Below, piece after piece: positions 32,356 to 48,738 of a stretch of 64,000 bases of DNA. Origin of the DNA: Acidimicrobiales bacterium. GTDB taxonomy: Bacteria; Actinomycetota; Acidimicrobiia; Acidimicrobiales; VFJN01. The first letter of the stretch is position 1, and each line of letters begins with the position of its first letter. The notes beneath the pieces were generated by a model. That model saw only the letters and a list, made by a program, of their open reading frames with translations, was not told the DNA's origin and did no database searches. The position numbers and the translations under genes are program-made. Location of the stretch: NCBI GenBank assembly GCA_035697515.1, contig DASSCS010000101.1, positions 17,540-81,539 on the forward strand. Direction: 5' to 3'.

Positions 32356-32373
32356 GTCTAACATCTCGGTCAC
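32356..32373 (+). promoter_or_regulatory. 18-bp box GTCTAACATCTCGGTCAC, copy a
   Basis: Identical 18/18 to the copy at 39244-39261. It ends 23 nt upstream of the ATG at 32396 and is followed by GGAGGGGAGGAGGGG. Confidence 0.7.
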
Positions 32374-32395
32374 TTCGTCGGAGGGGAGGAGGGGC

Positions 32396-33382
32396 ATGAC
32401 CGAGACGGGTGCGTTCCTGGCGCTGCGCTACGACCTGCGGGCGCCCGCCTTCGGGCCGCCGGCCGAGGCCCTCTACCAGGCGGCCCTCGAGCAATGCGCC
32501 TGGGCCGAGGACCACGGCTTCCTCATGGCCACGCTGTCCGAGCACCACGGGTCCGACGACGGGTACTGCCCCTCCCCCCTCGTGATGGCCGCCGCCATCG
32601 CCGGCCGGACACGCACCCTGCGGATCCTGATCGCCGCACTCGTCCTGCCGCTGTACGACCCCATCCGCCTCGCCGAGGACCTCGCCGTGCTCGACCTCGC
32701 CAGCGGGGGCCGGATCGACCTCATCCTCGGCGCCGGCTACCGGCCGGAGGAGCTGGCGATGTTCGGCCGCGCGCTGGACGACCGCGTGCCGCTGCTCGAG
32801 GAGGGGATCGCCGTCCTCCGCTCGGCATGGACGGGCGAGGAGTTCGAGTACCGCGGCCGTCGTGTCCGGGTCACGCCCCGGCCGGCTCGGCCGGAGGGGC
32901 CGGGGCTCATCATGGGCGGCGCCACGCCGGCTGCCGCCCGGCGCGCGGCGCGGCTCGGCGCCGGGTTCCTGCCCGTCGACGCGTCGCTGTGGGCGCCCTA
33001 CGAGGAGGCCTGCCGCGCGCTGGGTCGCGAGGCCGGGCCGCCACCCCCCGTCGGCGGGCCCAAGTTCATCCACGTCGCCGACGACCCCGACGAGGCCTGG
33101 AGGAGGATCGCCCCCCACGCCCTGCACGAGACCAACTCGTACGGCGGCTGGCTGGCCAGCGCCGACGCCCTCGGGCCCTACGAGACCAGCGACGACGCCG
33201 ACGCGCTGCGGGCGAGGGGCGACTACCTGGTGCTGACCCCCGACGAGTGCGTGGAGAGGGTGCGCACCACCGGTTCGCTGCTGCTGCACCCGCTGATGGG
33301 CGGGCTCGATCCGGACCTGGCCTGGGAGAGCCTGGAGCTCGTCGCCTCGAAGGTGATCCCCCGCCTAGCGGAGCCTGCGTAG
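32396..33382 (+). CDS. luciferase-like (LLM class) flavin-dependent oxidoreductase
   Basis: 328 aa. AEDHGFLMATLSEHH and GGRIDLILGAGY. Confidence 0.85.
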   Translation: MTETGAFLALRYDLRAPAFGPPAEALYQAALEQCAWAEDHGFLMATLSEHHGSDDGYCPSPLVMAAAIAGRTRTLRILIAALVLPLYDPIRLAEDLAVLDLASGGRIDLILGAGYRPEELAMFGRALDDRVPLLEEGIAVLRSAWTGEEFEYRGRRVRVTPRPARPEGPGLIMGGATPAAARRAARLGAGFLPVDASLWAPYEEACRALGREAGPPPPVGGPKFIHVADDPDEAWRRIAPHALHETNSYGGWLASADALGPYETSDDADALRARGDYLVLTPDECVERVRTTGSLLLHPLMGGLDPDLAWESLELVASKVIPRLAEPA

Positions 33383-33449
33383 CCGCGGGTCGCGCCTGCG
33401 CTCCGGGGCGCGATGGGCCTCGCGCGAGCGGCGAGGCCGACGCAGGCTC
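33371..33449. terminator. nested GC-rich hairpin between convergent genes (candidate bidirectional terminator)
   Basis: Outer 9-bp stem GAGCCTGCG (33371-33379) pairs with CGCAGGCTC (33441-33449) and encloses both stop codons. Inner 8-bp stem GGCCTCGC (33416-33423) pairs with GCGAGGCC (33431-33438). Confidence 0.5.
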
Positions 33450-34725
33450 AGTTGCCCGGCACCGGCAGGTCGACCGACCGGGTGGCGTGCTGCCCGACCT
33501 TGTCGGCCTTCACCGAGCGGAGCGACACGTCGTGGCCGGCCGCCCGGGCCCGCAGCGCGCCGACGGTGCAGTTCTCGCGCCCGCCCTGGGTCGGGAAGGG
33601 GTCGTAGCTGAAGTGCTTCATGGCGTTGAGGTGCGTGACGCGATCGATGTCGTGGTCACTGACCCCGCCGAGGTTGGTGGCCAGCTCCTCGGGGGCGAAG
33701 GGCCACGTCGAGTCGGAGTGGGGATAGTCGCACTCCCACATCACGTTGTCCATGTTGAGGAAGTCCCGGCTGGCCATGCCGAACTTGTCGTCGATGAAGC
33801 AGGTCAGCACCCGCTCGCTGAAGACCTCGCTCGGCAGCTTGTCGCCGAAGTCCTGCCCCGTCCACGCGTGGTGGCGCCGGTAGTTGTAGTCGACCCGCTC
33901 GAGGAAGTACGGGATCCAGCCGATCCCGCCCTCGGACAGGGCGATCTTCAGGTCGGGGAACCCCCGCAGCACGGGCGACCAGATCAGGTCGGCGGCCGCC
34001 TGCACGATGTTGATCGGGGTGAGCGTGATCAGGCAGTCGATCGGCGCGTCGGGGGCGGTGATGACGAGCTGCGACGACGACCCGATGTGCAGGCAGACGA
34101 CGACGCCCTCGTCGGAGCAGGCCTGCCAGAACGGGTTCCAGTGGTCGGAGTGGAAGCTCGGCCAGCCGAGCTTCGACGGGTTCTCCGAGAAGGTCACCGC
34201 GTGCGCCCCCATGCGGGCGGTGCGGCGCACCTCGCCGGCGAGCGTCTCGGGGTCCCAGATCGCCGGGAGCGAGCACGGGATGAAGCGACCGGGGTGCGTG
34301 CCGCACCAGTCCTCGATGTGCCAGTCGTTGTAGGCCCGCACCATGGCGAGCGCGACGTCCTTGTCGTCGGTGCGCGCGAACAGCTGGCCGCAGAACTGCG
34401 GGAACGACGGGAAGCAGAGCGAGCCGAGGACGCCGTTGGCGTCCATGTCCTTCACCCGCTCGTCGATGTCGTAGCAGCCGGCGCGCAGCTCGGCGAAGGA
34501 TGTCGGCTCCATGCCGTACTCCTCCGGCGGGCGGCCGGCCACGGCGTTGAGCGCGACGTTGGCGATCTCCTGGCCCTCGTACGCCCAGGCGTTCGTGCCG
34601 TCGTCGCGGGTCACGAACCTGGGGGCGAGGTCGGCGTACTTCGCGGGCAGCCGCCCGTCGAACAGGTGCGGCGGCTCGACCACGTGGTCGTCGACACTGA
34701 CCAGCACCATCTCGTTGATGTCCAT
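33448..34725 (-). CDS. amidohydrolase-2 (ACMSD-like metal-dependent hydrolase/decarboxylase) family protein
   Basis: 425 aa. VSVDDHVVEPP, LHIGSS, WECDYPHSDSTWP. Confidence 0.85.
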   Translation of the reverse strand: MDINEMVLVSVDDHVVEPPHLFDGRLPAKYADLAPRFVTRDDGTNAWAYEGQEIANVALNAVAGRPPEEYGMEPTSFAELRAGCYDIDERVKDMDANGVLGSLCFPSFPQFCGQLFARTDDKDVALAMVRAYNDWHIEDWCGTHPGRFIPCSLPAIWDPETLAGEVRRTARMGAHAVTFSENPSKLGWPSFHSDHWNPFWQACSDEGVVVCLHIGSSSQLVITAPDAPIDCLITLTPINIVQAAADLIWSPVLRGFPDLKIALSEGGIGWIPYFLERVDYNYRRHHAWTGQDFGDKLPSEVFSERVLTCFIDDKFGMASRDFLNMDNVMWECDYPHSDSTWPFAPEELATNLGGVSDHDIDRVTHLNAMKHFSYDPFPTQGGRENCTVGALRARAAGHDVSLRSVKADKVGQHATRSVDLPVPGN

Positions 34726-34754
34726 CGCCGACCCCCTCGGTTGACCTCGCTCGG

Positions 34755-34772
34755 AACTAACATCTGGGTCGC
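34755..34772 (+). promoter_or_regulatory. 18-bp box, degenerate copy d (AACTAACATCTGGGTCGC, 14/18)
   Basis: It lies in the 96-bp gap between two minus-strand genes. It is therefore inverted relative to the amidohydrolase start at 34725. Confidence 0.4.
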
Positions 34773-34821
34773 GACGGTAGCACGACGCGGCGCTCGACGG
34801 TCCGGGTTGCCGTCGGAGTGG

Positions 34822-36306
34822 TCAGCCCGTGGCCAGGAGGTCGGCCTGCACGACCCGGCGCAGAAGCTTGCCGGTCTCGGTATAGGGCAACGTCTCGACG
34901 AAGCTGACGATCTCGGGCGACTTCGAGCCCCGGAGCGACCGGCGGGCGAAGGCCTGCACGTCGTCGGCCTCGACGGTGGCGCCGGGCCGGGGCACCACCA
35001 CGGCGGCGATGCGCTGGCCCCACTCGTCGTCGGGGACACCGACGACGGCGCACTGCGCGATGTCGGGGTGCTGCAACAGCACCTCCTCGATCTCGGCCGG
35101 GGCGATGTTCTCGCCGCCGCGGATGATCGTGTCGTCGCTGCGGCCCTCGATGAACAGGTACCCGTCGTCGTCGAGCCGGCCGCGATCCCGCGTCGGGAAC
35201 CACCCCCCGACGTCGAGCGGCGCGCCCCCGCCCGCGTACTCGCCCGACACCTGCTCGCCGCGCACCCAGATCTCGCCGGGCTCGCCGGCGGGGAGCGGCT
35301 CGCCGAGCGGTCCGCGGACCTCCACCTCGACGGTGGGCAGCACACGTCCCGCCGAGGACAGGCGGGCGGTCGCCGCGGGATCGCCGTCCCGGGCGGCCCG
35401 GTGATCGTCGGGGCCCAACACCGCGATCGTCGAGCTGGTCTCGGTCAGCCCGTAGGCGTTGGTGAGGTCGACGTCGGGCAGCAGCGTCATCACCCGCTGC
35501 ACCACGGTGGCCGGCGTGCGCGCGCCGCCGTAGGACAGCGCCCGCAGGGAGGGCAGGCCACCGCCGTCGGCATCGAGCACGTCGCAGATGCGCGCCAGCA
35601 TCGTGGGCACCACCATCGCGTTGGTGACCCGCTCCCGCCGCACCGCCTCGACCCAGGCGGTGGCGTCGAACTGGGCGAGGTAGACGATCCGGCGGCCCAG
35701 GTAGAGGTTGCTGAGCAGGTTCGCCAGCCCGGCCACGTGGTACGGCGGCACGCTCACCAGCACGGCCTCGTCGGGCCCGGCGGCCGCGAACTCGACGGTG
35801 CCGATCACGTACGACGTCAGGTGCCGGTGCCGCAGCACCGCAGCCTTGGGCGCCGACGTCGTGCCGCTGGTGTACAGCAGCACGGCCGGCCCGTCGCCAT
35901 CGGCGGGCACCTCACCCGCCGCGCCGCGAGCCCGCGCGGCGGCCACGAACTCCCCTGCGTCGAGCACCCGGTGGCCCCGGGCGACGAGCGCCGCCGCCAC
36001 GTCACCCTCGGCGACCACCAGGGTGTCGCCCAGCGGGGCGAGCAGGTCGTGGAGCTGGTCGTCGCTCAGGCGGTAGTTCAGCGGCACGAAGGGCATGCCC
36101 GCCGCGGCGGCGGCGAACAGCCCGATCGGGACGGCGAGGCCGTTGGTGCCCACGTAGGCCAGGGCCGAGGCGCCCACCGCCAGCTCGGCCGCGCGCCACG
36201 CGCTCGCGAGCAGCTCGCCGCCGGTGAGCCGGTCGTCGCCCGCCTGCACGGCGACCTCGTCACCGCGGCCCGCGGCGACCATGTCGAGCAGGAGGAGCAG
36301 GTTCAT
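34822..36306 (-). CDS. AMP-dependent acyl-CoA synthetase/ligase
   Basis: YTSGTTSAPKAA, YGLTETS, TRDRGRLDDDGYLFIEGR, and C-terminal TGKLLRR. Confidence 0.9.
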   Translation of the reverse strand: MNLLLLLDMVAAGRGDEVAVQAGDDRLTGGELLASAWRAAELAVGASALAYVGTNGLAVPIGLFAAAAAGMPFVPLNYRLSDDQLHDLLAPLGDTLVVAEGDVAAALVARGHRVLDAGEFVAAARARGAAGEVPADGDGPAVLLYTSGTTSAPKAAVLRHRHLTSYVIGTVEFAAAGPDEAVLVSVPPYHVAGLANLLSNLYLGRRIVYLAQFDATAWVEAVRRERVTNAMVVPTMLARICDVLDADGGGLPSLRALSYGGARTPATVVQRVMTLLPDVDLTNAYGLTETSSTIAVLGPDDHRAARDGDPAATARLSSAGRVLPTVEVEVRGPLGEPLPAGEPGEIWVRGEQVSGEYAGGGAPLDVGGWFPTRDRGRLDDDGYLFIEGRSDDTIIRGGENIAPAEIEEVLLQHPDIAQCAVVGVPDDEWGQRIAAVVVPRPGATVEADDVQAFARRSLRGSKSPEIVSFVETLPYTETGKLLRRVVQADLLATG

Positions 36307-36403
36307 GCCGGTGTCCGCCCCTGTGTGCAGAGACCGCCGGCCGGCTCGCTGGTCGCAAACGTACGCGCGGTGGGGTTCATGGATCCGCGATGTCTGTACT
36401 CGA

Positions 36404-36712
36404 TCAGTCGGACGAGGGCAGCGGCTTGGCGTCCTTGACGAGGAGCGGGCGGCCGTCGACCGTCAGCGCGCCCGTGCCGGCGCGGGTGCACAGCAACTCG
36501 AGGCCGAGGTCGTCGTCCGCGTAGCGCTTGCCGAGCAGCGGCCCGTCACCGAGCGACGGATCGAGCGTCGCGGCGCCGTCGGCGTCCTGCCCGTCGTCGA
36601 GCAGCGGCGCGCCGCCGCAGCCGAGCGACACGTCGGCGGACGGCGCCCTGACGACGACGACCTGCGCGTCGCACACCGCGCTGCGCAGCTTCTGACCCGG
36701 TCGTAGCTTCAT
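36404..36712 (-). CDS. hypothetical 102-aa protein
   Basis: ATG preceded by GAGGGGCAC. Protein-like composition (MKLRPGQKLRSAVCDAQVVVVRAPSADVSLGCGGAPLL...). No family recognised. Confidence 0.5.
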   Translation of the reverse strand: MKLRPGQKLRSAVCDAQVVVVRAPSADVSLGCGGAPLLDDGQDADGAATLDPSLGDGPLLGKRYADDDLGLELLCTRAGTGALTVDGRPLLVKDAKPLPSSD

Positions 36713-36802
36713 GTGCCCCTCGATGTCCGTCCCCGGGATGAACACGTGCGGTGGCGCCGTGACGTCTCCCGCTCAGGGATGCTAGCTGGTGCGATGCACC
36801 CG

Positions 36803-36820
36803 GTCTAACAGTAGGGTCAC
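36803..36820 (+). promoter_or_regulatory. 18-bp box, copy e (GTCTAACAGTAGGGTCAC, 14/18; all mismatches in the N5 spacer region)
   Basis: It ends 36 nt upstream of the ATG at 36856, in the divergent region between the 102-aa ORF and the hydratase/tandem-TetR pair. Confidence 0.6.
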
Positions 36821-36855: not shown

Positions 36856-37764
36856 ATGCCCGAGTACAAGTTCGTGCTGTACGAGACGCTCGACGAGGGG
36901 CGGATCGCCCGCATCGTGTTGAACCGGCCCGAGGCCCGGAACGCCCAGAACCGCGGGATGCTCGTCGAGCTCGGCGACGCCTTCCTCCGCGCCGAGGCCG
37001 ACGACGAGGTGCGCGTCGTCATCCTCGCCGGCGCGGGGCCGATGTTCTCGTCCGGGCACGACATGGGATCGAAGGTCTCGCTCGAGGAGTACATGCCCGG
37101 GCCCGACCAGCACCCGACGCGAACGATCAACGGCGCCACCCGCGAGGGGGCCGAGAACCTGATGCTGCAGGAGTGGCACTACTTCTTCGAGAACACCCGC
37201 CGCTGGCGCAACCTCCGCAAGATCACGATCGGCCAAGCGCACGGCGACGTGTACGCCGCCGCGCTGATGCTGCTCTGGGCGTGTGATCTCATCGTCGCCG
37301 CCGACGACACCCGCTTCACCGACGTGGTGGGCACCCGGCTCGGGATGTGCGGTGTCGAGTACTTCGCCCACCCGTGGGAGTTCGGTCCCCGCAAGGCGAA
37401 GGAGCTGCTGCTGACCGGCGACTCGATCGACGCCGACGAGGCGCACGCCCTGGGCATGGTGAGCAAGATCTTCCCGGCCGACGGGCTCGGCGAGCACACC
37501 CTGCAGTTCGCCCGGCGGATCGCGCAGCTCCCCACGATGACGGCGCTGCTCATCAAGGAGGCGGTCAACCAGAGCGTCGACAACATGGGCTTCTACAACG
37601 CCCTCAACGCCTGCTTCACCCTGCACGAGCTGAACCACTCCCACTGGGCGCAGGTGAACGACGACGGCTACCCCGTGGCGAAGGAGGACTCGGGCATCCC
37701 CAACTGGAGGGAGGCTCCGCCCATCGTCCCCGCCGTCAAGGACAAGGTGCGCGCCGACCAGTAG
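36856..37764 (+). CDS. enoyl-CoA hydratase/isomerase (crotonase) family protein
   Basis: IARIVLNRPEARNAQN, VVILAGAGPMFSSGHDM, AAALMLLWACDLIVAADD. Confidence 0.9.
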   Translation: MPEYKFVLYETLDEGRIARIVLNRPEARNAQNRGMLVELGDAFLRAEADDEVRVVILAGAGPMFSSGHDMGSKVSLEEYMPGPDQHPTRTINGATREGAENLMLQEWHYFFENTRRWRNLRKITIGQAHGDVYAAALMLLWACDLIVAADDTRFTDVVGTRLGMCGVEYFAHPWEFGPRKAKELLLTGDSIDADEAHALGMVSKIFPADGLGEHTLQFARRIAQLPTMTALLIKEAVNQSVDNMGFYNALNACFTLHELNHSHWAQVNDDGYPVAKEDSGIPNWREAPPIVPAVKDKVRADQ

Positions 37765-37842: not shown

Positions 37843-39207
37843 ATGGCTCCTCTGCGAAGGGATCCCGAAGCTGCGCCGGCCGGCGCCGCCGTCGCCGACG
37901 ACCGGCGTGACGACGGCGAGTCCGACGCCGTGGTGCGCCGCGCCCCGTTCTCCGACAACCCCCGGGTCGGCGCCCGCGGGCAGCGGACGCAGCAGCGGAT
38001 CGTCGACGCCGCGCTGCGCGTCTTCGGCGAGGAGGGCTACCACCAGTGTGGTGTCGCCCGCATCACGCAGCTCGCCGGGTGCTCGCGGGCATCGTTCTAC
38101 CAGTACTTCTCCGGCAAGGAGGACGTGTTCCGCCATCTGGCGGGGCAGGTGGCGCGCCAGCTGAGCGCGTCGACCGAGGCGCTCGGCCTGGTCACGCCCG
38201 ACGCCGACGGCTGGCGGTCGACCCGGGCGTGGGTCGCCCGCTACGCCGACGTCTACGAGCGCTACGAGCCGGTCTTCCTCGTGTTCCAGACCGCGGCGGC
38301 GAGCGACGCGGCGGTCGCCGGCGGCTCGGCCCGCACGGGCGAGCGTCACGTCGCCTCCTTCCGGTCCCGGCTGACGGCGACGACCCTGCCCCCACGCCAG
38401 CTCGACCCGGTGATCACCCTCCTGCTCGGGTGCCTCCCCCGGACCCTCGACATCGCCGGCATCCTGCGGTCGGCCACGCCGTCCGCGTACCCGAGGGAGC
38501 GGATCGAGGACGCCCTCGCCGACGTCGTGCACCGCACGTTGTTCGGGCTCCAGGCCGTCAACGTGCACGCGCCCGCCCGGCGCCGGCCGCCGGTGCTCGA
38601 GTTCAGCCCCGCCGTGCAGGACGCCCTCGGCCACGACGGCACGGCGCGCCACCTGACCCCCGGTGGCAGGCGCACCCTGCAGGCCCTGATGGACGCAGGG
38701 CGCGAGCTGTTCGTTGCCCGGGGCTACCACGACACCCGCATCAACGACGTCGTCGCCGCCGCGGGCCTCTCCAAGGGGGCGTTCTACCGCTACTTCGAGA
38801 GCAAGGACCGCCTGGTCCAGGTCCTCGCCGTGCAGGCGATCCGCACCGTCTCGGCGACCCTGGCCGACATCCCTCCCGCCACTGCGCCCGACGGCGCGGC
38901 CCGCACGGCGGCCCTGCGCCGTTGGCTTCGGCGGTACAACGCCACGCAGGCCGGCGAGGCGGCGATGATCCGAGTCTGGGCCGACGCCGCGCTCGACGAC
39001 ACGGCGTTCAGATCCGATTCGGCCGCGGCTCTCGACTGGGGTCGGCGGCGGCTGGCGCACGTCCTGCGGCCACGGGGCTTCGGCGACGTCGACTCCGAGG
39101 CCGTCTTCGCCGTGGCCCTGCTCGGGACGTTCGGGGCCCGCGAGCGCCCCGCCGCCACGATCGACGCCGCCGCCCACATCATCGAGCGGGGGCTCCTCGG
39201 CCGTTGA
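37843..39207 (+). CDS. tandem (two-module, pseudodimeric) TetR family regulator, 454 aa
   Basis: Two complete TetR HTH segments in one ORF: RIVDAALRVFGEEGYHQCGVARITQLAGCSRASFYQYFSGKEDVF and LQALMDAGRELFVARGYHDTRINDVVAAAGLSKGAFYRYFESKDRLV. Each is followed by about 150 aa of helical ligand-domain-like sequence. The start codon is uncertain. Confidence 0.8.
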   Translation: MAPLRRDPEAAPAGAAVADDRRDDGESDAVVRRAPFSDNPRVGARGQRTQQRIVDAALRVFGEEGYHQCGVARITQLAGCSRASFYQYFSGKEDVFRHLAGQVARQLSASTEALGLVTPDADGWRSTRAWVARYADVYERYEPVFLVFQTAAASDAAVAGGSARTGERHVASFRSRLTATTLPPRQLDPVITLLLGCLPRTLDIAGILRSATPSAYPRERIEDALADVVHRTLFGLQAVNVHAPARRRPPVLEFSPAVQDALGHDGTARHLTPGGRRTLQALMDAGRELFVARGYHDTRINDVVAAAGLSKGAFYRYFESKDRLVQVLAVQAIRTVSATLADIPPATAPDGAARTAALRRWLRRYNATQAGEAAMIRVWADAALDDTAFRSDSAAALDWGRRRLAHVLRPRGFGDVDSEAVFAVALLGTFGARERPAATIDAAAHIIERGLLGR

Positions 39208-41272: not shown

Positions 41273-42037
41273 TCATCGCGCCACCTCCAGCTCGCCGAGG
41301 TAGGCGCGTTCGAGCGTCCGGCTGTCGCTGCGCAGCTCGTCGGCGGTTCCCCGGAGCACGATGCTGCCGCGGTCGAGGACGGCCGCCTCGTCGGCCACGT
41401 CGAGCGCGAGCCTGACGTGCTGCTCGACGAGCACGACGGCGGCGCCGTGGTCGCGGGCGATCGTGCGCACGGTGTCGAAGAGCGTCTCGACGACGAGGGG
41501 GGCCAAGCCCATGCTCATCTCGTCGACGAGCAGCACCCGGGGCCGCTGGATCAGGGCCCGGGCCATGGCGAGCATCTGCTGCTCACCACCGGAGAGCGCA
41601 CCGGCCGCCAGGCCCCAGCGCTTGTCCAGCGCAGGGAAGATGTCGAGGAGGTCGCGCGGCGCGGGGCCGCCCCGGGACCTCGCGACCTCGAGGTTCTCCT
41701 CGACGGTCAGCGTCGCGAAGAGCGACCGGTCGTCGGGGACGAGCACCACGCCGGCGCGGCTGGCGGCGACGGCGTTCCCGCTGCGCAGCGTGACTCCGTC
41801 CACGGTCGCTCGTCCGGCACGCGCCGGGAGCAGCCCGGCCAGTGTGAGCAGCAGCGTCGACTTGCCGGCGCCGTTCGGGCCGAGCAGCGCGAGCACGGTG
41901 CCCGCGTGCACGTCGAGGTCCAGGTCGCGGAACACGACCGTGGCGCCGTGGCCCCCGCTGAGGCCTGCGCACTCGAGCCGGACGCTCGTCGCCTCGGTCG
42001 CGTCGGCTCCCGCCGCAGTCGCTCGACGCTCGTTCAT
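41273..42037 (-). CDS. branched-chain-amino-acid-type ABC transporter ATP-binding protein (LivF-like)
   Basis: The ATG overlaps the upstream stop (ATGA). Walker [10 protein letters not shown], signature LSGGEQQML. Confidence 0.9.
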
Positions 42038-44787
42038 GCCGTCGCCACCTCGCTCTCGTGCATCGTGCCGAGGTACGCCTCGGCGACCGCGCGGTCGGCC
42101 CGGATCGCGTCCGGCGGTCCCTCGGCGATGACCTCTCCGAAGTCGAGCACGTAGACGTGTTCGCACACGTTGAGCACGAGGTTGACGTCGTGGTCGACGA
42201 GGAGCATGGCGGCGCCCGCCGAGCGGATGGTGCGGATGCGCTCGCCGAGCCATGCGCTCTCGTCGCTGTCGAGCCCGGCGGCAGGTTCGTCGAGCAGCAG
42301 GACCGCAGGGTCCGCCACGCACGCACGGGCGATCGAGACGAGCTGGCGCTCACCCTGGCTCAGCGCACCCGCCGGGCGGTCGCGCAGCCCCGAGATGCCG
42401 ACGTTGTCGAGCGCCCGTGCCACCGCGGCGCGGCGGTCGGTGTGGCGGCGCCCCGACGCGGCAACGCTGACGTTCTCCTCGACCGAGAGGTCGCCGTAGA
42501 GCTCGAGCGACTGGAACGTGCGGGCGAGGCCGGCGCGCACGCGAGCGTGCGGGGCGAGCGTGTCGATGCGCCGTCCGCCGAGCTCGACTGACCCCCTGGC
42601 CTCGGCGAAGCCGCTGACGGCGTCGATGACGCTGGTCTTGCCAGCCCCGTTCGGTCCGATGAGCCCCACGATCGTGCCGCCGTCGATGCGGAGCGTCACG
42701 TCGTTGACGGCGACGACACCGCCGTAGCGCACCGTGAGGTGGTCGATCCGGAGGGCGGCGGCACCATCCACCGGCGCGACGGCCGCGGGCGCGGCGGCCG
42801 TGGGCGCGACGGCCGCGACCGCCCGGCGCTCGACGCCGGCACCGCCGGCGCTTCGGCTCGACCTCCAGCGTGCCCAGCGGTCCGCGAGCTGGTGGCCCGC
42901 AGCGGCGATGCCCTCGGGGTTGACGATGAGGGTCACGATGAGGAGGACGCCGGTGATGACCTGGAACCACTCGCCGAGGTCCACCCAGCGGTCGAGGGCG
43001 ATGAACATGATGCCGGTGGACGCGATGATGCCGGCGCTGATGCCGCCCCAGACCGACGTGATGCCGGCCAGGTAGGCGGTCGACAGCAGCGCGAGCCCGC
43101 CGATCGCGGTGAACGAGTCGAACGTGACGACCCCCCGGCGGTACGCCAGCAGGCCGCCCCCCAGCCCGGCGATGAACGAGGCGAGCGCGAAGCTGAGGAC
43201 CTTCACGCGCACGACGTTGACCCCGGCGGCTGCGGCCGAGCGCTCGTTGGCCCGGACGGCGAGCATGGCCGAGCCGAGCGTGCTCCGCCGCAGGGCGGCG
43301 ACGCCCAGGGCGACGGCCACGAGGGTGACGAGGCACACGAGGCCGAACTCGATCCTCGGGAACTCCTGGCCGGACCCGATGCCCAGGTCGATGCCGAACA
43401 TCGAGGGCGGGGTGACGCGGGCGCCCGAGCTCGGGACGATGTCGGAGTTGCGGAACCAGACCGCCTCGATGGCGTAGGCCAGCGCCAATGTCACCACGCC
43501 GAGCGTGAGGCCCCGCGTCCGCAGGGCCGGCAGGCCCACAACCACCCCGATGGCGGTGGAGACGAGCGCGGCCAGCAGGGGCGCGAACGGGAAGGGCACG
43601 CCCCAGTCCTCGGTGAGCATGCTGAGGGTGAACGCCGCGGTGCCGGCGAGGGCGAGCTGGGCCAGCGACACCTGGCCGGCGTAGCCCGTGACGACGACGA
43701 GCGAGAGCCCGATGACCGCGGCGATGAACGTGCTGATCACCGCGGCGCGCCACGTCCCCGCCGTGAGCGCCAAGGCCAGCAAGCCGACGACCGATCCGGC
43801 GATCATGGGGAGGAGGAGGGACCGCGGGCGGGGCGCGTAGCCCAGACGCTGCCGGGTGAGGCCGCCGCGCACGGGCATCCCGCCGCCGACGAGCACCAGC
43901 GCGACGAGGATGACGATCAGCGGCACGAGCTCGGCCGCCCCGGTCTGGGGCATCCACGAGACGTCCGACGCCAGCGACAGCGCCTCGGCCTGCAGCATCC
44001 CGATGGCGATGCCGGCGGCCACGATCGTCACGATGCTCTGGAACCGTCCCACGACGGCGGCGGCGAGCGCCGGGACGACGAACAGGGTGTAGGTCACGGG
44101 CGTGAGCGGGTTCACGGGGGCGATGAGGATGCCGGCGATGCCGGCGACCATCGCGCTGATCATCCAGTTGACGAGGGCGATGCGGTCGGGCGAGACGCCG
44201 CTGACGAAGGCGCCCGTCTGCGACTCCGCCGTCGCCCGCGTCAGCAGCCCGAAGCGCGTGTACCGGAAGCCGGCCGAGAGCACGACCGCGAGGACGACGA
44301 CGGTGAGCGCGAGGTAGAACCGGTCGGACAGCACGATCACCTCGCCCAGCTCCCAGCGGTCGACCGGGAAGATCGGCCGGACGCTCACGGTGTTGGTGCC
44401 CTGGCGGATCGCCAGCACGCCCTGGATCACCACGAGGACGCCGAGCGACGCGACCGCCCGGGCCAGCGGGGGCGCAGCGCGGAGCGGCCGGAACACCAGC
44501 AGGTAGAGCAGCGCGCCCAGCACGGCCGCGATGACCAGCGAGAGCGCGACGGCCGGAGCGAAGGCGAGCTCCCGGCCGAGGTCGACGGTCTTCGGGAGCC
44601 CCGGGACCGGAACGAGCAGCTCGCCGCGGCGCAGGCCCGCGTAGGTGTACGCCACGTACAGAGCCAGCGCGCCCGTCGCGAAGTTCACGACGCCCGAGGC
44701 GCGGTAGGTGATCACGAGGGCGAGCGCGAGGGCGGCGAACACGCCCCCGCTGCCGAGGCCGAGCAAGAGGGAAGCGACGTGGTCCAC
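42034..44787 (-). CDS. fused LivH-like permease / LivM-like permease / LivG-like ATPase (917 aa)
   Basis: One uninterrupted ORF. LivH-like region with FRPLRAAPPLARAV, LivM-like region with VTGYAGQVSLAQLALAG, then GPNGAGKTS...LSQGERQL. Confidence 0.85.
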   Translation of the reverse strand: MDHVASLLLGLGSGGVFAALALALVITYRASGVVNFATGALALYVAYTYAGLRRGELLVPVPGLPKTVDLGRELAFAPAVALSLVIAAVLGALLYLLVFRPLRAAPPLARAVASLGVLVVIQGVLAIRQGTNTVSVRPIFPVDRWELGEVIVLSDRFYLALTVVVLAVVLSAGFRYTRFGLLTRATAESQTGAFVSGVSPDRIALVNWMISAMVAGIAGILIAPVNPLTPVTYTLFVVPALAAAVVGRFQSIVTIVAAGIAIGMLQAEALSLASDVSWMPQTGAAELVPLIVILVALVLVGGGMPVRGGLTRQRLGYAPRPRSLLLPMIAGSVVGLLALALTAGTWRAAVISTFIAAVIGLSLVVVTGYAGQVSLAQLALAGTAAFTLSMLTEDWGVPFPFAPLLAALVSTAIGVVVGLPALRTRGLTLGVVTLALAYAIEAVWFRNSDIVPSSGARVTPPSMFGIDLGIGSGQEFPRIEFGLVCLVTLVAVALGVAALRRSTLGSAMLAVRANERSAAAAGVNVVRVKVLSFALASFIAGLGGGLLAYRRGVVTFDSFTAIGGLALLSTAYLAGITSVWGGISAGIIASTGIMFIALDRWVDLGEWFQVITGVLLIVTLIVNPEGIAAAGHQLADRWARWRSSRSAGGAGVERRAVAAVAPTAAAPAAVAPVDGAAALRIDHLTVRYGGVVAVNDVTLRIDGGTIVGLIGPNGAGKTSVIDAVSGFAEARGSVELGGRRIDTLAPHARVRAGLARTFQSLELYGDLSVEENVSVAASGRRHTDRRAAVARALDNVGISGLRDRPAGALSQGERQLVSIARACVADPAVLLLDEPAAGLDSDESAWLGERIRTIRSAGAAMLLVDHDVNLVLNVCEHVYVLDFGEVIAEGPPDAIRADRAVAEAYLGTMHESEVATA

Positions 44788-44902
44788 GGCAAGCGTCTCC
44801 GAACGTCAGGGAGGAGGGCGGGTCGGGCGGGAAGCCCCCCGGTGGTCGCCGTGCGCCGCCGGAGACAGCGCACGGCGACCGGGGAAGGGGCACCGTGGCC
44901 CG

Positions 44903-46216
44903 TTACAGCCCTTCGACGATGTCCGACGAGTCGACGGGCTCGTAGCTGGCGGGGTTGCCCTCGGCGTCGAGCGTGGCCCGCAGCGAGTTGTTCGAGCACA
45001 CGGCCGGCTGGTCCGGGAACGCCGTCCCGCCGCACTGGAACGTGAGGCCGTCGGCCCCGGGGTAGTCGGCCTCGTCCATCGACTTGATCGCCTCCGCCGC
45101 GGCCTCCGGGGTGATGTCGTCCGCGATCCCCTCGAGGGCTGCGGCGAGCGACGCCACCGTGGTGTACGCGCCCATGGCGAGGGCGTTCTCGACGTCCTCG
45201 ACGTCCTCACCGTAGGCGTCCATCACCTCCTGGTAGAGCTGGTACGCCGGGTCGTCGGTCGCGCCGACGGCCATGGTGGCGGTGAGCGAGATCCCCTCGA
45301 GCTGGTCGCCCGGCACCGCCTCGCGCGTGGCATCGGTGATGCACTGCGAGATCGAGGTGATCTGGCCCTCGTAGCCGACGGCGTTGAGCCCCTGGATCGC
45401 GGCGATGCAGAAGGCGTCGTTGCCGATGATCTGCACGACACCCGCGTCGCTCTCGGCGACCTCCTGCATCTGCGAGGTCATGTCGGCCGTGCCCGGCGGG
45501 ATCTTGACGAGCTCGTACTCGAGCCCGGCGTTCCCGAGGACGGCGTCCGCGGCACCGGATTCGAACGAGGCGTTCGCCTGGGGGACGTCGATGTTGACGA
45601 AGGCGATCTTGTCGGTGCCCTCGCTCTCGGCCACGGCGATCGGAACCCCGAACAGCGTGGCGAGCGGGTTGACCATGGTGAAGCTCGTCTCGCCGTCGCT
45701 GAGGAGGTCCTCGGCGCTGGTCTGGAAGAACAACGTCGGCACCCCGGCGGCGTGCAGCGGCTCCCAGACCGCGTCGGCCACCGCGGACTGGCTGAGGGCG
45801 ACCGCCACGACCTGCTCCTCGACCATCTGGTTGGCGCAGTTGGTCCCGCCGGCCGGGTCGGCGCCCGTCTCGCAGGTCACGATCTCGATCGGCCGGCCGC
45901 CAACGCCACCGCGGTGGGTGTTCCAGTACTCGGCCGTGGCCTCGGCGGTGCGGAGCTCGTCGGTGTTGTCGAACGCCTGCGTGGCGCCGTCGGAGACCAT
46001 CGCGATCCTGACCGGCTCACCCGACGCGGCGTCCTCGGGCCCGAGCAGGTCGGTGGCCTCGGAGCCGGACGTGGTCTCGTCGCCCGCTGTCGACGCGTCG
46101 TCGTCATCGCCGCCGCACGCTGCGACCGCGAGCAGCAGCACGGGCAGGACCGCCAGGGCGATCCCCCGCCGGGGCGACCCGCCGCGGCGCCCTGTCGCCT
46201 CCCCCGGCTTCTCCAT
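44903..46216 (-). CDS. ABC substrate-binding lipoprotein, Leu/Ile/Val-binding (type I PBP) family
   Basis: ATG preceded by AGGAGGGGGCAC. Signal SPRRGIALAVLPVLLLAVAACGG (lipobox, possible twin-arginine). Confidence 0.85.
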   Translation of the reverse strand: MEKPGEATGRRGGSPRRGIALAVLPVLLLAVAACGGDDDDASTAGDETTSGSEATDLLGPEDAASGEPVRIAMVSDGATQAFDNTDELRTAEATAEYWNTHRGGVGGRPIEIVTCETGADPAGGTNCANQMVEEQVVAVALSQSAVADAVWEPLHAAGVPTLFFQTSAEDLLSDGETSFTMVNPLATLFGVPIAVAESEGTDKIAFVNIDVPQANASFESGAADAVLGNAGLEYELVKIPPGTADMTSQMQEVAESDAGVVQIIGNDAFCIAAIQGLNAVGYEGQITSISQCITDATREAVPGDQLEGISLTATMAVGATDDPAYQLYQEVMDAYGEDVEDVENALAMGAYTTVASLAAALEGIADDITPEAAAEAIKSMDEADYPGADGLTFQCGGTAFPDQPAVCSNNSLRATLDAEGNPASYEPVDSSDIVEGL

Positions 46217-46541
46217 GTGCCCCCTCCTGGGTTGTGGACGGTGTGTCCTGGACATCTCTTCCCCTTGCTGTCGTGGGATCGGCGGTCGCGCCCGAGCCCC
46301 TGGGTGCGCGTCGTCGCTCATGGGGCCGGCACGTCCAGCACGACCGCGGTCGACATCCCCTCCTCTGGGCCGGGCGCACGTCCGGCTGGAACCCCCGTCC
46401 GCTGTGCCCCCGTGATGTGAAGGCTATGTTCGCAGTGAGAGAACGTCATTGCAACAGCGGGCAACGCTCCGACGCACCCAGCCAGAAGCATCGTGCCGAT
46501 CCACCCTTCGCACCGCCGCTCCGGCCACTCGACGCGGGGCA

Positions 46542-47378
46542 CTAGAGGGTGGGCCCGGTGCGCGCGGCGTCGAGCGGGCGGATCATCCCGTCCTGGACGA
46601 ACGACGCGACCAGCGAGCCGTCGGGCCGGAACACGTTCCCGGTCCCGTAGCACCGCCCGCGCCCGGCATAGGGGCTGTGGTGCGAGAGCAGCAGCCACTG
46701 CCCGGCCGGGGCCGGCTCGTGGAAGGTGAGCGTGTGGCTGACCACCCCGGTCGAGACCGTGACGTGCGCCTGGGCCTGCCCGAGCCCGGGATGGGGCCGC
46801 ATCGCGGTGGCGATGAGGAAGCCGTCGGTGGCGAACGCCAGCAGCGCCTGGTCGATGGCGGCGTCGTCGGGCGCACCGACGAAGCGCGTCCAGACGCAGA
46901 GGTCGGGCGGGCCGACCGCCTCGGGATCGTTCACGTCGACGTCGCCCGCGATGCGCACCTGCCAGGCGCCCGCGTCGTCGCCTCCGCCGGTGCCGCCCTC
47001 GGGGCCCGGCGAGGTGGGGGCGGGGTCGGCGTGACGGATGAAGTCCGGCTCGTCCGCGCTCAGCAGCACCAGCGAGCGGGCGCACAGCCGGTCGTCCTGG
47101 CTGAGCGACACCGTGCTGCTCGCGAACGCGCGACCCGTGTGCATGCGGTCGACCGCGATGTCGACGGGCGCGTCCGGCCTGCCGGGGCGGGCGAAGATCG
47201 TGTGCACCGTCTTGACGCGCTTGCCGTCCTGACCGGCCAGGCCGGCGACGACCGACTGCGCCAGCAACTGGCCCCCGAAGATCACCCCGGGGCCGGCAGC
47301 GGCGTTGCCGGCTCGGTAGCGGTCGGGGCCGAGCGGTTCGAGGGTGAGCGCCCCGACGAGGCTGTCGATGGTGAGCAC
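46542..47378 (-). CDS. acyl-CoA thioesterase II (TesB-like, double hotdog)
   Basis: 278 aa. FGGQLLAQS, TGRAFASSTV, LLAFATDGF. Confidence 0.8.
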   Translation of the reverse strand: MLTIDSLVGALTLEPLGPDRYRAGNAAAGPGVIFGGQLLAQSVVAGLAGQDGKRVKTVHTIFARPGRPDAPVDIAVDRMHTGRAFASSTVSLSQDDRLCARSLVLLSADEPDFIRHADPAPTSPGPEGGTGGGDDAGAWQVRIAGDVDVNDPEAVGPPDLCVWTRFVGAPDDAAIDQALLAFATDGFLIATAMRPHPGLGQAQAHVTVSTGVVSHTLTFHEPAPAGQWLLLSHHSPYAGRGRCYGTGNVFRPDGSLVASFVQDGMIRPLDAARTGPTL

Positions 47379-47420
47379 GTGCTACTCCGGCGGGAAGCGC
47401 GCGTCGTCGGGCGGGCCACG

Positions 47421-48617
47421 TCAGGCCGTGGCCGGCACCGCGACCCGCATGAGTCGGGCGAGGTTCCCGCCCATGATGGCGGCGACGTCGTCGTCCGGGA
47501 GGCCGTCGGGCAGGTGGTCGACGTAGCTGCACGGCTCGGCCAGGCCCTCGGGGTGGGGGTAGTCGGAGCCGAACAGGAGGTGATCGGCGCCCATGACGTC
47601 GACGAGCTGCTCGATGTCGTCCTCGTGGAACGGGCTGACGTAGACGTTGCGCCTGAACGCGTCGACCGGGTCCTCGTCGAACGCCTGGGGCATCTTCCTG
47701 TGGACGTCCTCGAGGTGCTCGACGAACGGCGTCACCCAGTCGCCGCCGTTCTCGATCGACGCGACCCGCAGCTCGGGGAACCGCGTGAAGGCACCGTGGC
47801 AGACGAACGCGGCCATGCTGTCGTCAATGGGCCGCGAGGCCATGGTGAGCATGCGGAACGGGTCGGGCCGGAACGGCAGCATCTCCATCGGCCCCGTCCA
47901 GTCGCTCTGGTACCGCGAGTAGCCGCTGTCGGAGGCATGCATCGACACCAGCACGTCGTTGTCGACCACGGCCTGCCAGAACGGGTCGAACTCCTCGAAG
48001 CCGAACGAGCGGGAGCCCCCGTACGCCGGCACCGGCGCGGGCCGGACCAGCACCGTCCGCGCCCCGCGCTCGACCACCCACTCAAGCTCCTCGATGGCCT
48101 TCTCCACGATGGGCAGGCTGATGACCGGCGTGGCGAAGATGCGGTCCTCGTAGTCGAACGTCCACTCCTCGTACAGCCACTCGTTGAGGGAGTGGATCAC
48201 CGCGTGGATCAACACCGGGTCGTCACGCATGCGCTCCTCGAGCAGGCTGGCCAGCGTGGGGAACATGAGTGCCCGGTCGACGCCGAGCTCGTCCATGAGC
48301 TCGAGGCGAGGTCCCGGCTCGCGGAACGCCGGGATGCTGCGCATCGGCTCGCCCACGAGCTCGCGGTACGACTTCCCCTCGGGGTTACCGCTGCGGAAGT
48401 ACTCCTCCTGCGCGCCCGGGCGGGCCACCACCTCGAACGTCGGGTTCGGGATGTACTCGCTGATCGTGCCGCGGACCACGATCTTCGTGCGCCCCCGGAC
48501 GTCGACGTAGTCGACCGCGCCCTTGTACCGGTCGGGCAGGTGGCGGGTGAACGCCTCCCTGGTCTCGTACAGGTGGTTGTCCGCATCGAAGACCGGGAAA
48601 CCGAGCCGTCTCGTCAT
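47421..48617 (-). CDS. amidohydrolase-2 family protein
   Basis: FPVFDADNHLYE, MHASDSG, FGSDYPHPEG. The start is ATG 48617 (preferred) or TTG 48653. Confidence 0.8.
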   Translation of the reverse strand: MTRRLGFPVFDADNHLYETREAFTRHLPDRYKGAVDYVDVRGRTKIVVRGTISEYIPNPTFEVVARPGAQEEYFRSGNPEGKSYRELVGEPMRSIPAFREPGPRLELMDELGVDRALMFPTLASLLEERMRDDPVLIHAVIHSLNEWLYEEWTFDYEDRIFATPVISLPIVEKAIEELEWVVERGARTVLVRPAPVPAYGGSRSFGFEEFDPFWQAVVDNDVLVSMHASDSGYSRYQSDWTGPMEMLPFRPDPFRMLTMASRPIDDSMAAFVCHGAFTRFPELRVASIENGGDWVTPFVEHLEDVHRKMPQAFDEDPVDAFRRNVYVSPFHEDDIEQLVDVMGADHLLFGSDYPHPEGLAEPCSYVDHLPDGLPDDDVAAIMGGNLARLMRVAVPATA

Positions 48618-48635
48618 GCTCAGCACGGTAGGTTT

Positions 48636-48653
48636 TTCTAACGGTTGGGTCAA
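48636..48653 (+). promoter_or_regulatory. 18-bp box, weak copy f (TTCTAACGGTTGGGTCAA, 12/18; TCTAAC-N5-GGTCA retained)
   Basis: It lies 85 bp upstream of copy c in the same divergent intergenic region. Confidence 0.4.
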
Positions 48654-48720
48654 CTCTCTGTGCGCCTCACGGGACCGGGGCTGCGCATGCGGTCGCTTGG
48701 GGGCAGTCGGTGTGCGTGCT

Positions 48721-48738
48721 ACCTAACATCTCGGTCAT
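48721..48738 (+). promoter_or_regulatory. 18-bp box, copy c (ACCTAACATCTCGGTCAT, 15/18)
   Basis: It ends about 25 nt upstream of the ATG at 48763 and is followed by AAGGAGGGG. Confidence 0.65.

Follow-up and report, generated by a model that had tools for sequence, protein, structure and literature searches.

Genes and boxes of the catabolic cluster

The window, by which we mean the whole 64-kb stretch of DNA analysed from an uncultured Acidimicrobiales bacterium, carries a cluster of catabolic genes with six copies of an 18-bp box (Table 1). The gene order of the unit formed by hyp113, AMP-ligase 2, and Amidohydrolase_2 is kept in three related loci (L085, L099, and L126). ECH1 is putatively the first gene of an operon shared with the gene of a tandem TetR protein (ECH1-TetR operon). 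The long unit running from Box 5 encodes an Amidohydrolase_2 protein, an acyl-CoA thioesterase, a solute-binding protein, a Liv-type ABC permease/ATPase, and ECH2. The common strand and small gaps of these genes suggest that they probably form one operon, and a scan with a position weight matrix (PWM) of the box found no site inside it.

Table 1. Coordinates of the genes, predicted target units, helix-turn-helix (HTH) segments, and boxes in the window
Feature	Position	Strand	Description
Box 1	32356..32373	+	GTCTAACATCTCGGTCAC; exact 18-mer; PWM 30.2 bits
LLM oxidoreductase (luciferase-like), predicted target	32396..33382	+	Pfam Bac_luciferase, E 4.5e-52
hyp113 + AMP-ligase 2 + Amidohydrolase_2, predicted target unit	33448..36745	-	Pfam
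Amidohydrolase_2 (of hyp113 unit)	33448-34725	-	Pfam
Box 2	34755..34772	+	AACTAACATCTGGGTCGC; PWM 19.3 bits
AMP-ligase 2	34822-36306	-	Pfam
hyp113	36404-36745	-	
Box 3	36803..36820	+	GTCTAACAGTAGGGTCAC; PWM 26.7 bits
Enoyl-CoA hydratase ECH1, predicted target	36856..37764	+	Pfam ECH_1; NCBIfam PRK08290, 394.8 bits (cutoff 280)
Tandem TetR gene	37843..39207	+	454 aa, single chain; two TetR_N stretches (Pfam)
HTH1, helices alpha2-alpha3	38053..38106	+	Residues 71-88, VARITQLAGCSRASFYQ; AF2 helices H71-78, H82-88
HTH2, helices alpha2'-alpha3'	38740..38793	+	Residues 300-317, INDVVAAAGLSKGAFYRY; AF2 helices H300-307, H311-317
Box 4	39244..39261	+	GTCTAACATCTCGGTCAC; exact 18-mer; PWM 29.5 bits
Short-chain dehydrogenase SDR1, predicted target	39284..40039	+	Pfam adh_short
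Long unit from Box 5	40077..48617	-	Pfam
Box 5	48636..48653	+	TTCTAACGGTTGGGTCAA; PWM 30.1 bits
Box 6	48721..48738	+	ACCTAACATCTCGGTCAT; 3 mismatches to 18-mer; PWM 23.7 bits
CoA-transferase + SDR2, predicted target unit	48763..50910	+	
Family III CoA-transferase	48763-49980	+	Pfam CoA_transf_3, E 1.9e-84
SDR2	50083-50910	+	Pfam adh_short

All six boxes lie on the + strand, each between genes supported by GC3. Box 1 is located 23 nt upstream of the LLM oxidoreductase ATG, and Box 4 lies 37 nt downstream of the TetR stop codon and 23 nt upstream of the GTG start of SDR1. Box 3, situated where hyp113 (-) and ECH1 (+) diverge, is 36 nt upstream of the ECH1 ATG and is a putative autoregulatory site of the ECH1-tandem TetR operon. 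Box 2 has the AMP-ligase-2 stop on one side and the Amidohydrolase-1 start on the other; as these are - strand genes, the box runs opposite to them. Boxes 5 and 6 form a pair, with Box 6 lying 85 bp downstream of Box 5 and 25 nt upstream of the family III CoA-transferase ATG. Box 5 is 18 nt from the probable Amidohydrolase-2 ATG at 48617 (-), and its region read on the - strand (TTGACC, 17 nt, TACCGT, 7 nt, ATG) looks like a leaderless promoter, judging from the sequence. An earlier note on this DNA had reported the coordinates, mismatch counts, and four of the distances to start codons (23, 23, 25, and 36 nt) and had placed all the copies in intergenic DNA; the rescan returned the same values and the same placement.

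Statistics and conservation of the box

The recurrence of the 18-bp box is genuine, and its conservation is strong. The 18-mer GTCTAACATCTCGGTCAC had three matches in the window (two exact and one with three mismatches), while 0.02 were expected, and none of 100 shuffled windows contained at least three. The core TCTAAC-N5-GGTCA, with at most one mismatch, was found 6 times versus 0.16 expected. One of these six matches, at 40432 and absent from the earlier list, falls within the coding sequence of ECH2 and was rejected by the PWM. The 34755 copy, which had been listed among the weaker ones, was missed by the core scan, yet it scores 19.3 bits. This PWM was trained solely on sites of other organisms, outside the window. 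It gave the six boxes 19.3 to 30.2 bits, and the best position beyond them in the 64 kb stayed at a background level of 9.3 bits (null maximum, 95th percentile at 15.7 bits).

The analysis of 656 kb of related Acidimicrobiales loci revealed 168 sites of at least 16 bits, many of the compared sites being orthologous and hence not independent. Four of them (2.4%) had a coding-like context, versus 62% of random positions. The 93 unique sites, drawn from loci whose TetR is 36 to 96% identical, gave the consensus gTCTAACAnYngGGTCAc, in which the scanned core positions are fixed, with extra preferences at A7, Y9, and G11 and almost no information beyond these 17 to 18 bp. The earlier description of the box as non-palindromic needs qualifying, as it overlooked an imperfect dyad, TAAC-N6-GTCA, matching at 3/4 positions.

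The box behaves as a phylogenetic footprint, since sites keep their positions before the starts of orthologous SDR, enoyl-CoA hydratase, LLM, and CoA-transferase genes. The distance to the called SDR1 start is mostly 21 to 26 nt (13, 14, and 19 nt in three deeper-branching loci). The ECH1-class box, TCTAACAGTAGnGTCA, lies mostly 31 to 37 nt before the called ECH1 start in loci with a TetR 57 to 96% identical. Distances are 23 to 26 nt for LLM (26 nt in L013/L014), with a further box in L099 about 13 nt before the start of an LLM tblastn match, and 25 to 39 nt for the CoA-transferase (27 to 39 nt for orthologous proximal boxes). Orthologues of Box 2, ACTAACAAnnGGGTCAC, occupy the same position in L005, L010, L015, L024, L084, L099, and L126, and the paired layout of Boxes 5 and 6 is also present in L013, L021, L098, and L036-L045. 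These comparative data agree with the view, already put forward in the earlier note, of a cis-regulatory element ahead of catabolic genes.

This conservation might come from RNA polymerase contacts, if the box were a promoter element, such as an extended -10/discriminator or a dedicated alternative sigma or activator site. Box 1 contains TAACAT, which fits the -10-like hexamer TANNNT, and the same letters are found at box positions 3 to 8 in all 14 unique SDR1 boxes. TANNNT is also present at positions 9 to 14 in 7 of the 8 unique ECH1 boxes, TAGGGT at these positions in Box 3 being similar. Moreover, the start codon stands at a fixed 21 to 26 nt, with a Shine-Dalgarno sequence in between, and most boxes in related loci are oriented toward the gene that follows (101 on the + strand, 30 on the -). 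We nevertheless consider a promoter element quite improbable. No -35 or other signal is conserved beyond the 18 bp, leaving the hexamer without a -35 partner. Only 6 bp separate the two conserved blocks, against the 16 to 18 nt expected between -35 and -10 elements. The TANNNT register varies by gene class while TCTAAC and GTCA stay fixed, so the spacer is conserved within a class and differs between classes. Among the six boxes, those at 34755 and 48636 point away from the gene that they precede, a placement kept in relatives, and the consensus sigma-70 scan found nothing. The dedicated sigma or activator site suggested earlier is thus not upheld, while the other suggestion, a promoter fused to an operator, appears to fit the comparative data.

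The short, fixed distance upstream of Shine-Dalgarno sequences and the presence of six copies within 16 kb could also recall a motif acting in RNA (5'-UTR motif, sRNA target, or riboswitch fragment) or the remnant of a small mobile repeat. Either is barely credible. The leaders fold no better than shuffled sequences (z-scores of -1.2 to +1.7) and share no common structure, no Rfam match was found in 30-52 kb, and some copies are inverted. The boxes have unrelated flanks and hence are not parts of a longer repeat unit, and if the in-box hexamer is a -10, most of the box lies outside the transcript.

The tandem TetR protein as candidate regulator

The protein encoded at 37843-39207, proposed earlier as a candidate binder, is supported in this role by the comparative data. 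Its AF2 model (pLDDT, 82.8; pTM, 0.80) has a single full-length match in the PDB, Mce3R (9b7y_A; E value, 4.7e-8; 428 alignment columns). The two recognition helices differ (CSRASFYQYF in HTH1 and LSKGAFYRYF in HTH2), and each is conserved across the family: the motifs AGCSRxxFYQYF of HTH1 and AGxS(K/H)GxFYRYF of HTH2 are kept, and both helices are near invariant down to 36% protein identity. The tandem TetR is present in 88/88 box-bearing loci, a co-occurrence that is partly built in because 80 of them were selected through the TetR gene. The other eight, Acidimicrobiales genome loci, were found by the DNA pattern alone, and in all of them the TetR adjoins a box. The box also precedes TetR transcription units without ECH1 ahead (L020, L021, L042, L044, L055, L060, and L072), and when the TetR is only 36 to 37% identical, a site lies within about 130 bp of its gene in 5 of 6 loci.

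We therefore regard it as likely that the six boxes are operators for this single-chain, two-HTH TetR. The polypeptide would fold as a pseudo-dimer whose unlike recognition helices enter consecutive major grooves at the half-sites TCTAAC and GGTCA, with about 10 bp from one half-site centre to the other. Since the HTHs are not alike, the operator would be an asymmetric quasi-palindrome (TAAC-N6-GTCA) and not a true palindrome; the double architecture, overlooked in the earlier note, would thus explain the asymmetry of the box, with Mce3R as the solved precedent (PMC11667970). We infer repression, and not activation, from the predicted overlap of the boxes with hexamers resembling a -10, or one resembling a -35, in five putative promoter regions, where the bound protein would block RNA polymerase. 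Such occlusion is not evident at every site, since the proximal CoA-transferase and Amidohydrolase-1 boxes have no in-box TANNNT. The protein would keep down its own ECH1-TetR operon and about 18 genes that serve to take up an organic acid, activate it with CoA, and process it in a beta-oxidation-like way, until a metabolite of the pathway, probably an acyl-CoA, relieves the repression.

Co-localisation is no proof of binding, and the tandem TetR could be merely a member of a regulon whose operator is read by another factor. The window holds four further TetR genes and a LuxR-family gene, and the candidates include the TetR at about 29.5-30.1 kb, the MalT/LuxR-type protein at 54428-57031, and a single-domain TetR elsewhere in the genome. 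The dyad could suit an ordinary homodimer, as could the fully palindromic TCTGAC-N6-GTCAGA sites that arise in distant clades, where position 4 of the left half-site is sometimes G; given such sites, the asymmetry may partly reflect relaxed specificity and not strict recognition. Another factor is nonetheless unlikely. No homolog of the 29.5-kb TetR, the only other one nearby, occurs in the 88 loci, the remaining TetRs of the window have true homologs in at most one locus, and the MalT/LuxR gene is missing from box-bearing loci. The box, for its part, accompanies the tandem TetR gene through changes of gene neighbourhood. In addition, position 4 is A at 90/93 unique sites and its mirror position is G, even without a -10 constraint, an asymmetry that a symmetric homodimer does not explain.

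Comparison with known TetR systems

The closest known system to the proposed tandem TetR and its boxes is Mce3R of Mycobacterium tuberculosis (Rv1963c; mce3/yrbE3A operator; 9b7y), also a single polypeptide with two TetR units and non-identical HTHs arranged as a pseudo-dimer. Its cryo-EM structure showed both HTHs of one chain bound to a non-palindromic operator (PMC11667970), and the operator is non-palindromic in both systems. Mce3R is autoregulated, as proposed here for the tandem TetR, its regulon comprises lipid and beta-oxidation-type enzymes, and paired sites occur in one control region in both, those of Mce3R being 53 bp apart. In contrast, the two proteins are only 16% identical, with sequence similarity confined to the HTHs. 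The Mce3R site is AT-rich, 25 to 27 bp long, and devoid of dyad, while the box is a compact quasi-palindrome of 17 to 18 bp, and under the box PWM the Mce3R probe reaches no more than -2.3 bits. Mce3R orthologs are confined to some pathogenic mycobacteria (PMC11667970), whereas the present lineage is Acidimicrobiales and no mce genes are among the annotated genes of the 30-52 kb cluster.

A group of Actinomycetes repressors with a "tandem TetR-family signature" was described in 2013 with more than 200 predicted members (PMC3711444). It shares the double TetR architecture and the Actinomycetota affiliation with the protein studied here; as presented in that description, the group is defined by predicted secondary structure only, and an operator or regulon is given for Mce3R alone among its members (PMC3711444). 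The double-TetR/box system of this bacterium would add a new case to a regulator type of which Mce3R alone has been studied so far.

KstR, KstR2, Fad35R, and FadR-type regulators resemble the proposed system in controlling acyl-CoA catabolic genes through operators of about 15 to 20 bp that overlap promoters and have half-sites one helical turn apart, and CoA thioesters are the reported ligands of KstR2 and Fad35R (PMC11667970). Unlike the tandem TetR, they are symmetric homodimers acting on true palindromes. Read against the box letters, the KstR consensus TnnAACnnGTTnnA given in the earlier note agrees with the left half alone (TCTAAC); it would need GTT at positions 9 to 11, where the boxes carry CTC or TAG.

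The box in the window and in related loci

The six boxes described in the earlier note were scored with a position-weight matrix (PWM) trained only on sites from other organisms. All six stood apart from the background, with 19.3 to 30.2 bits against at most 9.3 bits in the rest of the 64 kb (95th percentile of the null maximum, 15.7), and they were strand specific, each reaching 19 to 30 bits on one strand and none exceeding 8 bits on the opposite one. The 18-mer GTCTAACATCTCGGTCAC was found exactly at 32356 and 39244 and with three mismatches at 48721 (3 matches for a chance expectation of 0.02), while the core TCTAAC-N5-GGTCA, with at most one mismatch, occurred 6 times in the 64-kb window, for 0.16 expected. 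The GC content of the window is 72%, and the near-identical homologs of its proteins, as well as the related genome records, are labeled as Acidimicrobiales MAGs. Gene calling based on GC3, together with Pfam, placed every reported box between genes. One other core match (TCGAACGCTGCGGTCA) was rejected as a box: it lies within the ECH2 coding sequence, on the opposite strand, and below the PWM listing threshold. It recurs in two comparison loci (L002 and L038) as conserved coding sequence. As a sequence element, the box is real and has good support from comparative genomics.

Positions of the boxes, genes and related sites (box positions are starts; window coordinates unless a comparison locus is named)
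Feature	Position	Strand	Context
Box	32356		between AMP-ligase 1 and the LLM gene
Box	34755		between AMP-ligase 2 (-) and Amidohydrolase 1 (-)
Box	36803		between hyp113 (-) and ECH1 (+)
Box	39244		between the tandem TetR gene and SDR1
Boxes	48636, 48721		between Amidohydrolase 2 (-) and CoA-transferase (+)
Rejected core match	40432-40447		within ECH2
Tandem TetR gene	37843-39207	+	454 aa
N-terminal arm	37936-37986		residues 32-48 of tandem TetR
Lys311 codon	38773-38775		HTH2 of tandem TetR (LSKG)
hyp113	36404-36745	-	113 aa
Histidine-kinase-like gene	27963-29333
Single-domain TetR gene	29336-30142	+	directly after the histidine-kinase-like gene, about 2.2 kb upstream of the first box
MalT/LuxR-type regulator gene	54428-57031	-	AAA_16, MalT-like TPR and GerE domains; 5.7 kb past the last box
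Paired boxes	window 48636/48721; L013 15566/15641; L021 15494/15559; L098 2467/2552; L021 11359/11414; L036-L045
Palindromic variants	L056 8615; L057 4651; L072 11280; L071 6628		TCTGACA-N4-TGTCAGA or CTGAC-N6-GTCAG

The core was present 103 times in 600 kb from 80 metagenome loci gathered via the tandem TetR protein encoded next to SDR1, where about 1.5 occurrences are expected (scaled from 0.16 per 64 kb). The logo built from 93 unique sites reads g-T-C-T-A-A-C-A-n-Y-n-g-g-G-T-C-A-c, a motif of 17 to 18 bp in which the centers of TAAC and GTCA are 10 bp apart. This agrees with the size and spacing of generic TetR operators (about 15 to 20 bp, with half-sites about one helical turn apart). 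Among the same 93 sites, every flanking position examined (-11 to -1 and +18 to +28) carried close to zero information, showing that the box is the whole element, with neither a -35 partner nor a longer repeat around it. The intergenic placement reported within the window also extended to the relatives: in 656 kb of Acidimicrobiales loci, only 4 of the 168 sites with at least 16 bits (2.4%) were coding-like, versus 62% of random positions.

The box had been called non-palindromic, a description that holds for the element as a whole and less so for its center. The core, TAAC-N6-GTCA, forms an imperfect dyad in which the right half, reverse complemented, gives TGAC; it is symmetric at 3 of the 4 core positions, and the flanks are asymmetric, so that the full dyad symmetry of TetR operators was not found. 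Symmetry is broken by TC at positions 1-2 and by two adenines, one at position 4 (90 of 93 sites) and one at position 7. Position 4 keeps its A where no -10 hexamer demands it, in the boxes of ECH1 and the inverted ones at the Amidohydrolase genes, which indicates that the asymmetry is intrinsic to the site and not a by-product of the promoter. Palindromic TCTGAC-N6-GTCAGA variants were confined to distant clades, where the tandem TetR homologs are 36 to 55% identical. The distribution of these sequences suggests a palindromic ancestor from which the asymmetric box arose.

That the box might be an RNA element or a mobile repeat is hardly credible. Four leaders folded no better than shuffled sequences (z scores of -1.2 to +1.7) and shared no common structure, and Rfam gave no match in the 30-52 kb region. 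The search for a mobile or longer repeat yielded nothing but GC-rich noise, and the sequences flanking the boxes are unrelated. Matches were also retrieved elsewhere when a genome collection was scanned with the pattern TCTAACATCTSGGTCAC, a scan in which the source genome was not among the matches. The exact 17-mer TCTAACATCTCGGTCAC occurred in 27 MAGs of about 64% GC, labeled Actinomycetota or "Propionibacteriaceae," in one shared conserved context (L087 5296-6681 [+] and 26 similar loci, L088-L143). Only L087 was translated, and there the 17-mer sits in the 3' end of a 461-aa ORF ending in VTEMLEDVAV and the stop codon, on the opposite strand; by eye only, this ORF looks PIN/PhoH-like. These 27 matches look like a single inherited coincidence and were rejected as regulon boxes. 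About 30 matches in unrelated phyla, consistent with chance, were rejected as well.

The tandem TetR protein as candidate binder

Whatever the gene context, a box precedes the transcription unit of the tandem TetR gene. Where ECH1 and the TetR gene form a unit, the box is found ahead of ECH1; where ECH1 is not upstream, it directly precedes the TetR gene (6 to 171 nt; L020, L021, L042, L044, L055, L060, and L072). A site adjacent to the regulator gene, as expected under autoregulation, was thus found despite differing gene orders, and even among loci whose homologs are only 36 to 37% identical a site was within about 130 bp of the TetR gene in 5 of 6. The scan of 185,579 species genomes, which used the DNA pattern only, retrieved eight Acidimicrobiales MAG loci, and all eight carried a tandem TetR beside the box together with the same enzyme genes. 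These counts are not independent events, since 80 of the 88 loci were picked through the tandem TetR gene and many sites are orthologous. Binding by another transcription factor is improbable: no other regulator is co-conserved with the box, and a symmetric homodimer does not explain its conserved asymmetry. None of the 88 loci contained a homolog of the single-domain TetR, the other TetRs of the window were not co-conserved with the box in these loci, and the MalT/LuxR gene was not conserved in related loci. The proposal of an operator fused to a promoter and bound by a local protein is thus largely upheld, as a prediction from comparative genomics. The double nature of the TetR had gone unseen, and it is the key to the asymmetry of the box.

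Pfam TetR_N matched two stretches of the tandem TetR (E = 1.1e-31), with HTHs at residues 70-92 and 299-321. Its AlphaFold2 model (pLDDT, 82.8; pTM, 0.80) had Mce3R (9b7y_A) as top Foldseek match in the PDB (E = 4.7e-8; 428 columns; TM scores, 0.53/0.61). This was the sole full-length match, all others spanning one half of the protein, and in the model the single chain folds as a pseudo-dimeric TetR like 9b7y. The recognition helices are non-identical (HTH1, AGCSRASFYQYFSGK; HTH2, AGLSKGAFYRYFESK) and each is conserved in the family. The helices AGCSRASFYQYF and AGLSKGAFYRYF hardly vary among homologs with overall identities as low as 36%, much as the two DNA half-sites stay constant. The N-terminal arm RRAPFSDNPxVGARGQR shows no variation in 34 homologs and is disordered in the AlphaFold2 model. 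In Mce3R, N-terminal Arg/Lys residues contact DNA (PMC11667970), and the arm of the tandem TetR may add to asymmetric recognition. HTH2 carries Lys311 only in close orthologs. Position 12 of the box is G at all 18 unique sites where Lys311 is present, and G (18), A (21), T (14) or C (35) in the His311 clades. HTH2 may therefore read the GGTCA half-site, but this covariation, though suggestive, is confounded by phylogeny and was set aside as evidence.

Mce3R is so far the only natural tandem TetR with both a defined operator and a solved structure. Its single chain forms an asymmetric pseudo-dimer on a non-palindromic operator, with two non-identical HTHs, as resolved by cryo-EM (9b7y; PMC11667970). 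A synthetic-biology paper from 2013 counted more than 200 actinomycete proteins with a tandem TetR signature, for which it appears to give no operators (PMC3711444). Our search for literature on characterized tandem TetRs returned only Mce3R and this paper. Like Mce3R, the protein studied here has two TetR_N HTH domains in one polypeptide and non-identical recognition helices. Unlike an ortholog, it shares only 16% identity in the structural alignment, and phmmer aligned the HTH regions only (E = 4.5e-10). The operators also differ: that of Mce3R is AT-rich, 25 to 27 bp long and without dyad, whereas the box is compact and quasi-palindromic. The Mce3R operator probe scored at most -2.3 bits with the box PWM, and no mce gene was among the annotated genes of the 30-52 kb cluster. 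The system would work like Mce3R without being its ortholog. Non-palindromic binding by both HTHs of one chain is predicted, the DNA side being asymmetric at positions 1-2, 4 and 7. A KstR/KstR2-type operator was rejected too, in line with the earlier note: of the palindromic KstR consensus cited there (TnnAACnnGTTnnA), only the left half of the box, TCTAAC, fits, positions 9-11 being CTC, TAG or GTT-less and the right half GGTCA.

The locus thus points to an uncharacterized and widespread tandem TetR clade with a newly defined compact, quasi-palindromic operator and a regulon, all predicted from sequence. The clade, second to Mce3R and unrelated to it, exceeds 1,000 sequence clusters (1,282 at 90% identity with E of at most 1e-20 among the candidates scored), most of them from uncultured Acidimicrobiales. 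The operator predicted for it is unusually clean, being compact, multicopy and deeply conserved. Because its asymmetry resides in few base positions, the reading of two half-sites by a fused TetR is directly testable. No current view is overturned, and specialists would not be surprised after the 2024 structure of Mce3R. The value lies in a second, clean system in which to study how fused TetRs read DNA asymmetrically and, for synthetic biology, in a single-chain repressor and its operator as a candidate orthogonal pair.

Possible promoter overlap and predicted regulation

The distances between the boxes and the downstream genes, the starting point of the earlier note, are kept in relatives. 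From the end of the box there are mostly 21 to 26 nt to the GTG of SDR1 (13, 14 and 19 nt in three deeper-branching loci), mostly 31 to 37 nt to the ATG of ECH1 (called starts, related loci), 23 to 26 nt to the LLM start and, from the proximal box, 25 to 39 nt to the CoA-transferase start. The second box of the CoA-transferase region lies 65 to 100 bp upstream of the proximal one, beside the divergent Amidohydrolase 2. The spacer of the box is alike within a gene class and unlike between classes, which the register of the -10-like hexamer TANNNT would explain. In all 14 unique SDR1 boxes this hexamer occupies positions 3-8 as TAACAT, and in 7 of 8 ECH1 boxes positions 9-14 as TAGnGT; it was found within 2 of 2 LLM, 2 of 10 CoA-transferase and 0 of 3 Amidohydrolase-1 boxes. 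At box 48636, the minus strand reads TTGACC, 17 nt, TACCGT, 7 nt and ATG, which looks like a leaderless promoter, a candidate for that of Amidohydrolase 2. Plausibly, then, the boxes overlap core promoter elements at most sites, not all. A sigma-70 consensus scan of 32-50 kb found no promoter-like sites, such a scan being uninformative for an actinobacterium of 72% GC.

The box could also be a promoter and nothing else, or an alternative-sigma element, as the earlier note had offered with a dedicated sigma factor. The -10-like hexamers are what such an element would contain, but the 93 sites show no conserved -35, and the conserved blocks are 6 bp apart instead of the 16 to 18 nt that separate -35 and -10. 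From one gene class to another the TANNNT register moves and the outer blocks do not, and two boxes are inverted relative to their genes. We consider this alternative very unlikely.

For repression by the tandem TetR, we infer that the protein binds the box and that it lowers expression, and we likewise infer the ligand and where transcription starts. One single-chain TetR would sit on each box, its two HTHs on half-sites 10 bp apart, and would occlude the -10 or -35 element. Five control regions, covering about 18 genes, would be repressed. The predicted regulon comprises an LLM oxidoreductase, two Amidohydro_2 proteins, an AMP-ligase, two enoyl-CoA hydratases, two SDRs, a thioesterase, a family III CoA-transferase, a Liv-type ABC importer and the tandem TetR itself. 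The inducer would be an acyl-CoA of the pathway, by analogy with KstR2 and Fad35R. This annotates a conserved predicted regulon of an acyl-CoA pathway; NCBIfam naming of the cluster enzymes assigned no pathway, with only ECH1 above a subfamily cutoff.

Paired boxes always have the same orientation. The members of the CoA-transferase/Amidohydrolase-2 pair are 65, 75 or 85 bp apart, depending on the lineage, and those of the SDR1 pair 54 to 55 bp. Other pairs are separated by 76, 84, 86, 90, 98 to 100, or 133 bp. Steps of 10 bp are a hint of helical phasing and of a bridging dimer, such as has been proposed for Mce3R, although some spacings are off-phase. A joint reading, which we regard as possible rather than probable, is that the box combines a directional operator with a promoter -10 element, bound one way by the repressor, with looping of divergent promoters. 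Each HTH would have its own half-site, so that the repressor would be bound in one orientation; the conserved N-terminal arm may join in, and HTH2 would sit on GGTCA, as hinted by the restriction of Lys311 to loci with G at position 12. Single-chain dimers, like those of Mce3R, would then bridge boxes whose helical phasing is drawn from the 65/75/85-bp spacing and would loop the divergent promoters. If true, this would give a general rule for duplicated and fused TetRs, in which asymmetric recognition evolves from a palindromic ancestor, CTGAC-N6-GTCAG.

Within these loci, the enzymes are more conserved than the regulator (median identities of 87% for ECH1, 85% for Amidohydrolase 1 and 84% for AMP-ligase 2, and 71% for the tandem TetR). 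The hypothetical protein hyp113, without a Pfam or NCBIfam match, is kept in 26 loci with a median identity of 81%. It is always divergent from ECH1 and heads the AMP-ligase/Amidohydrolase unit in these 26 loci.
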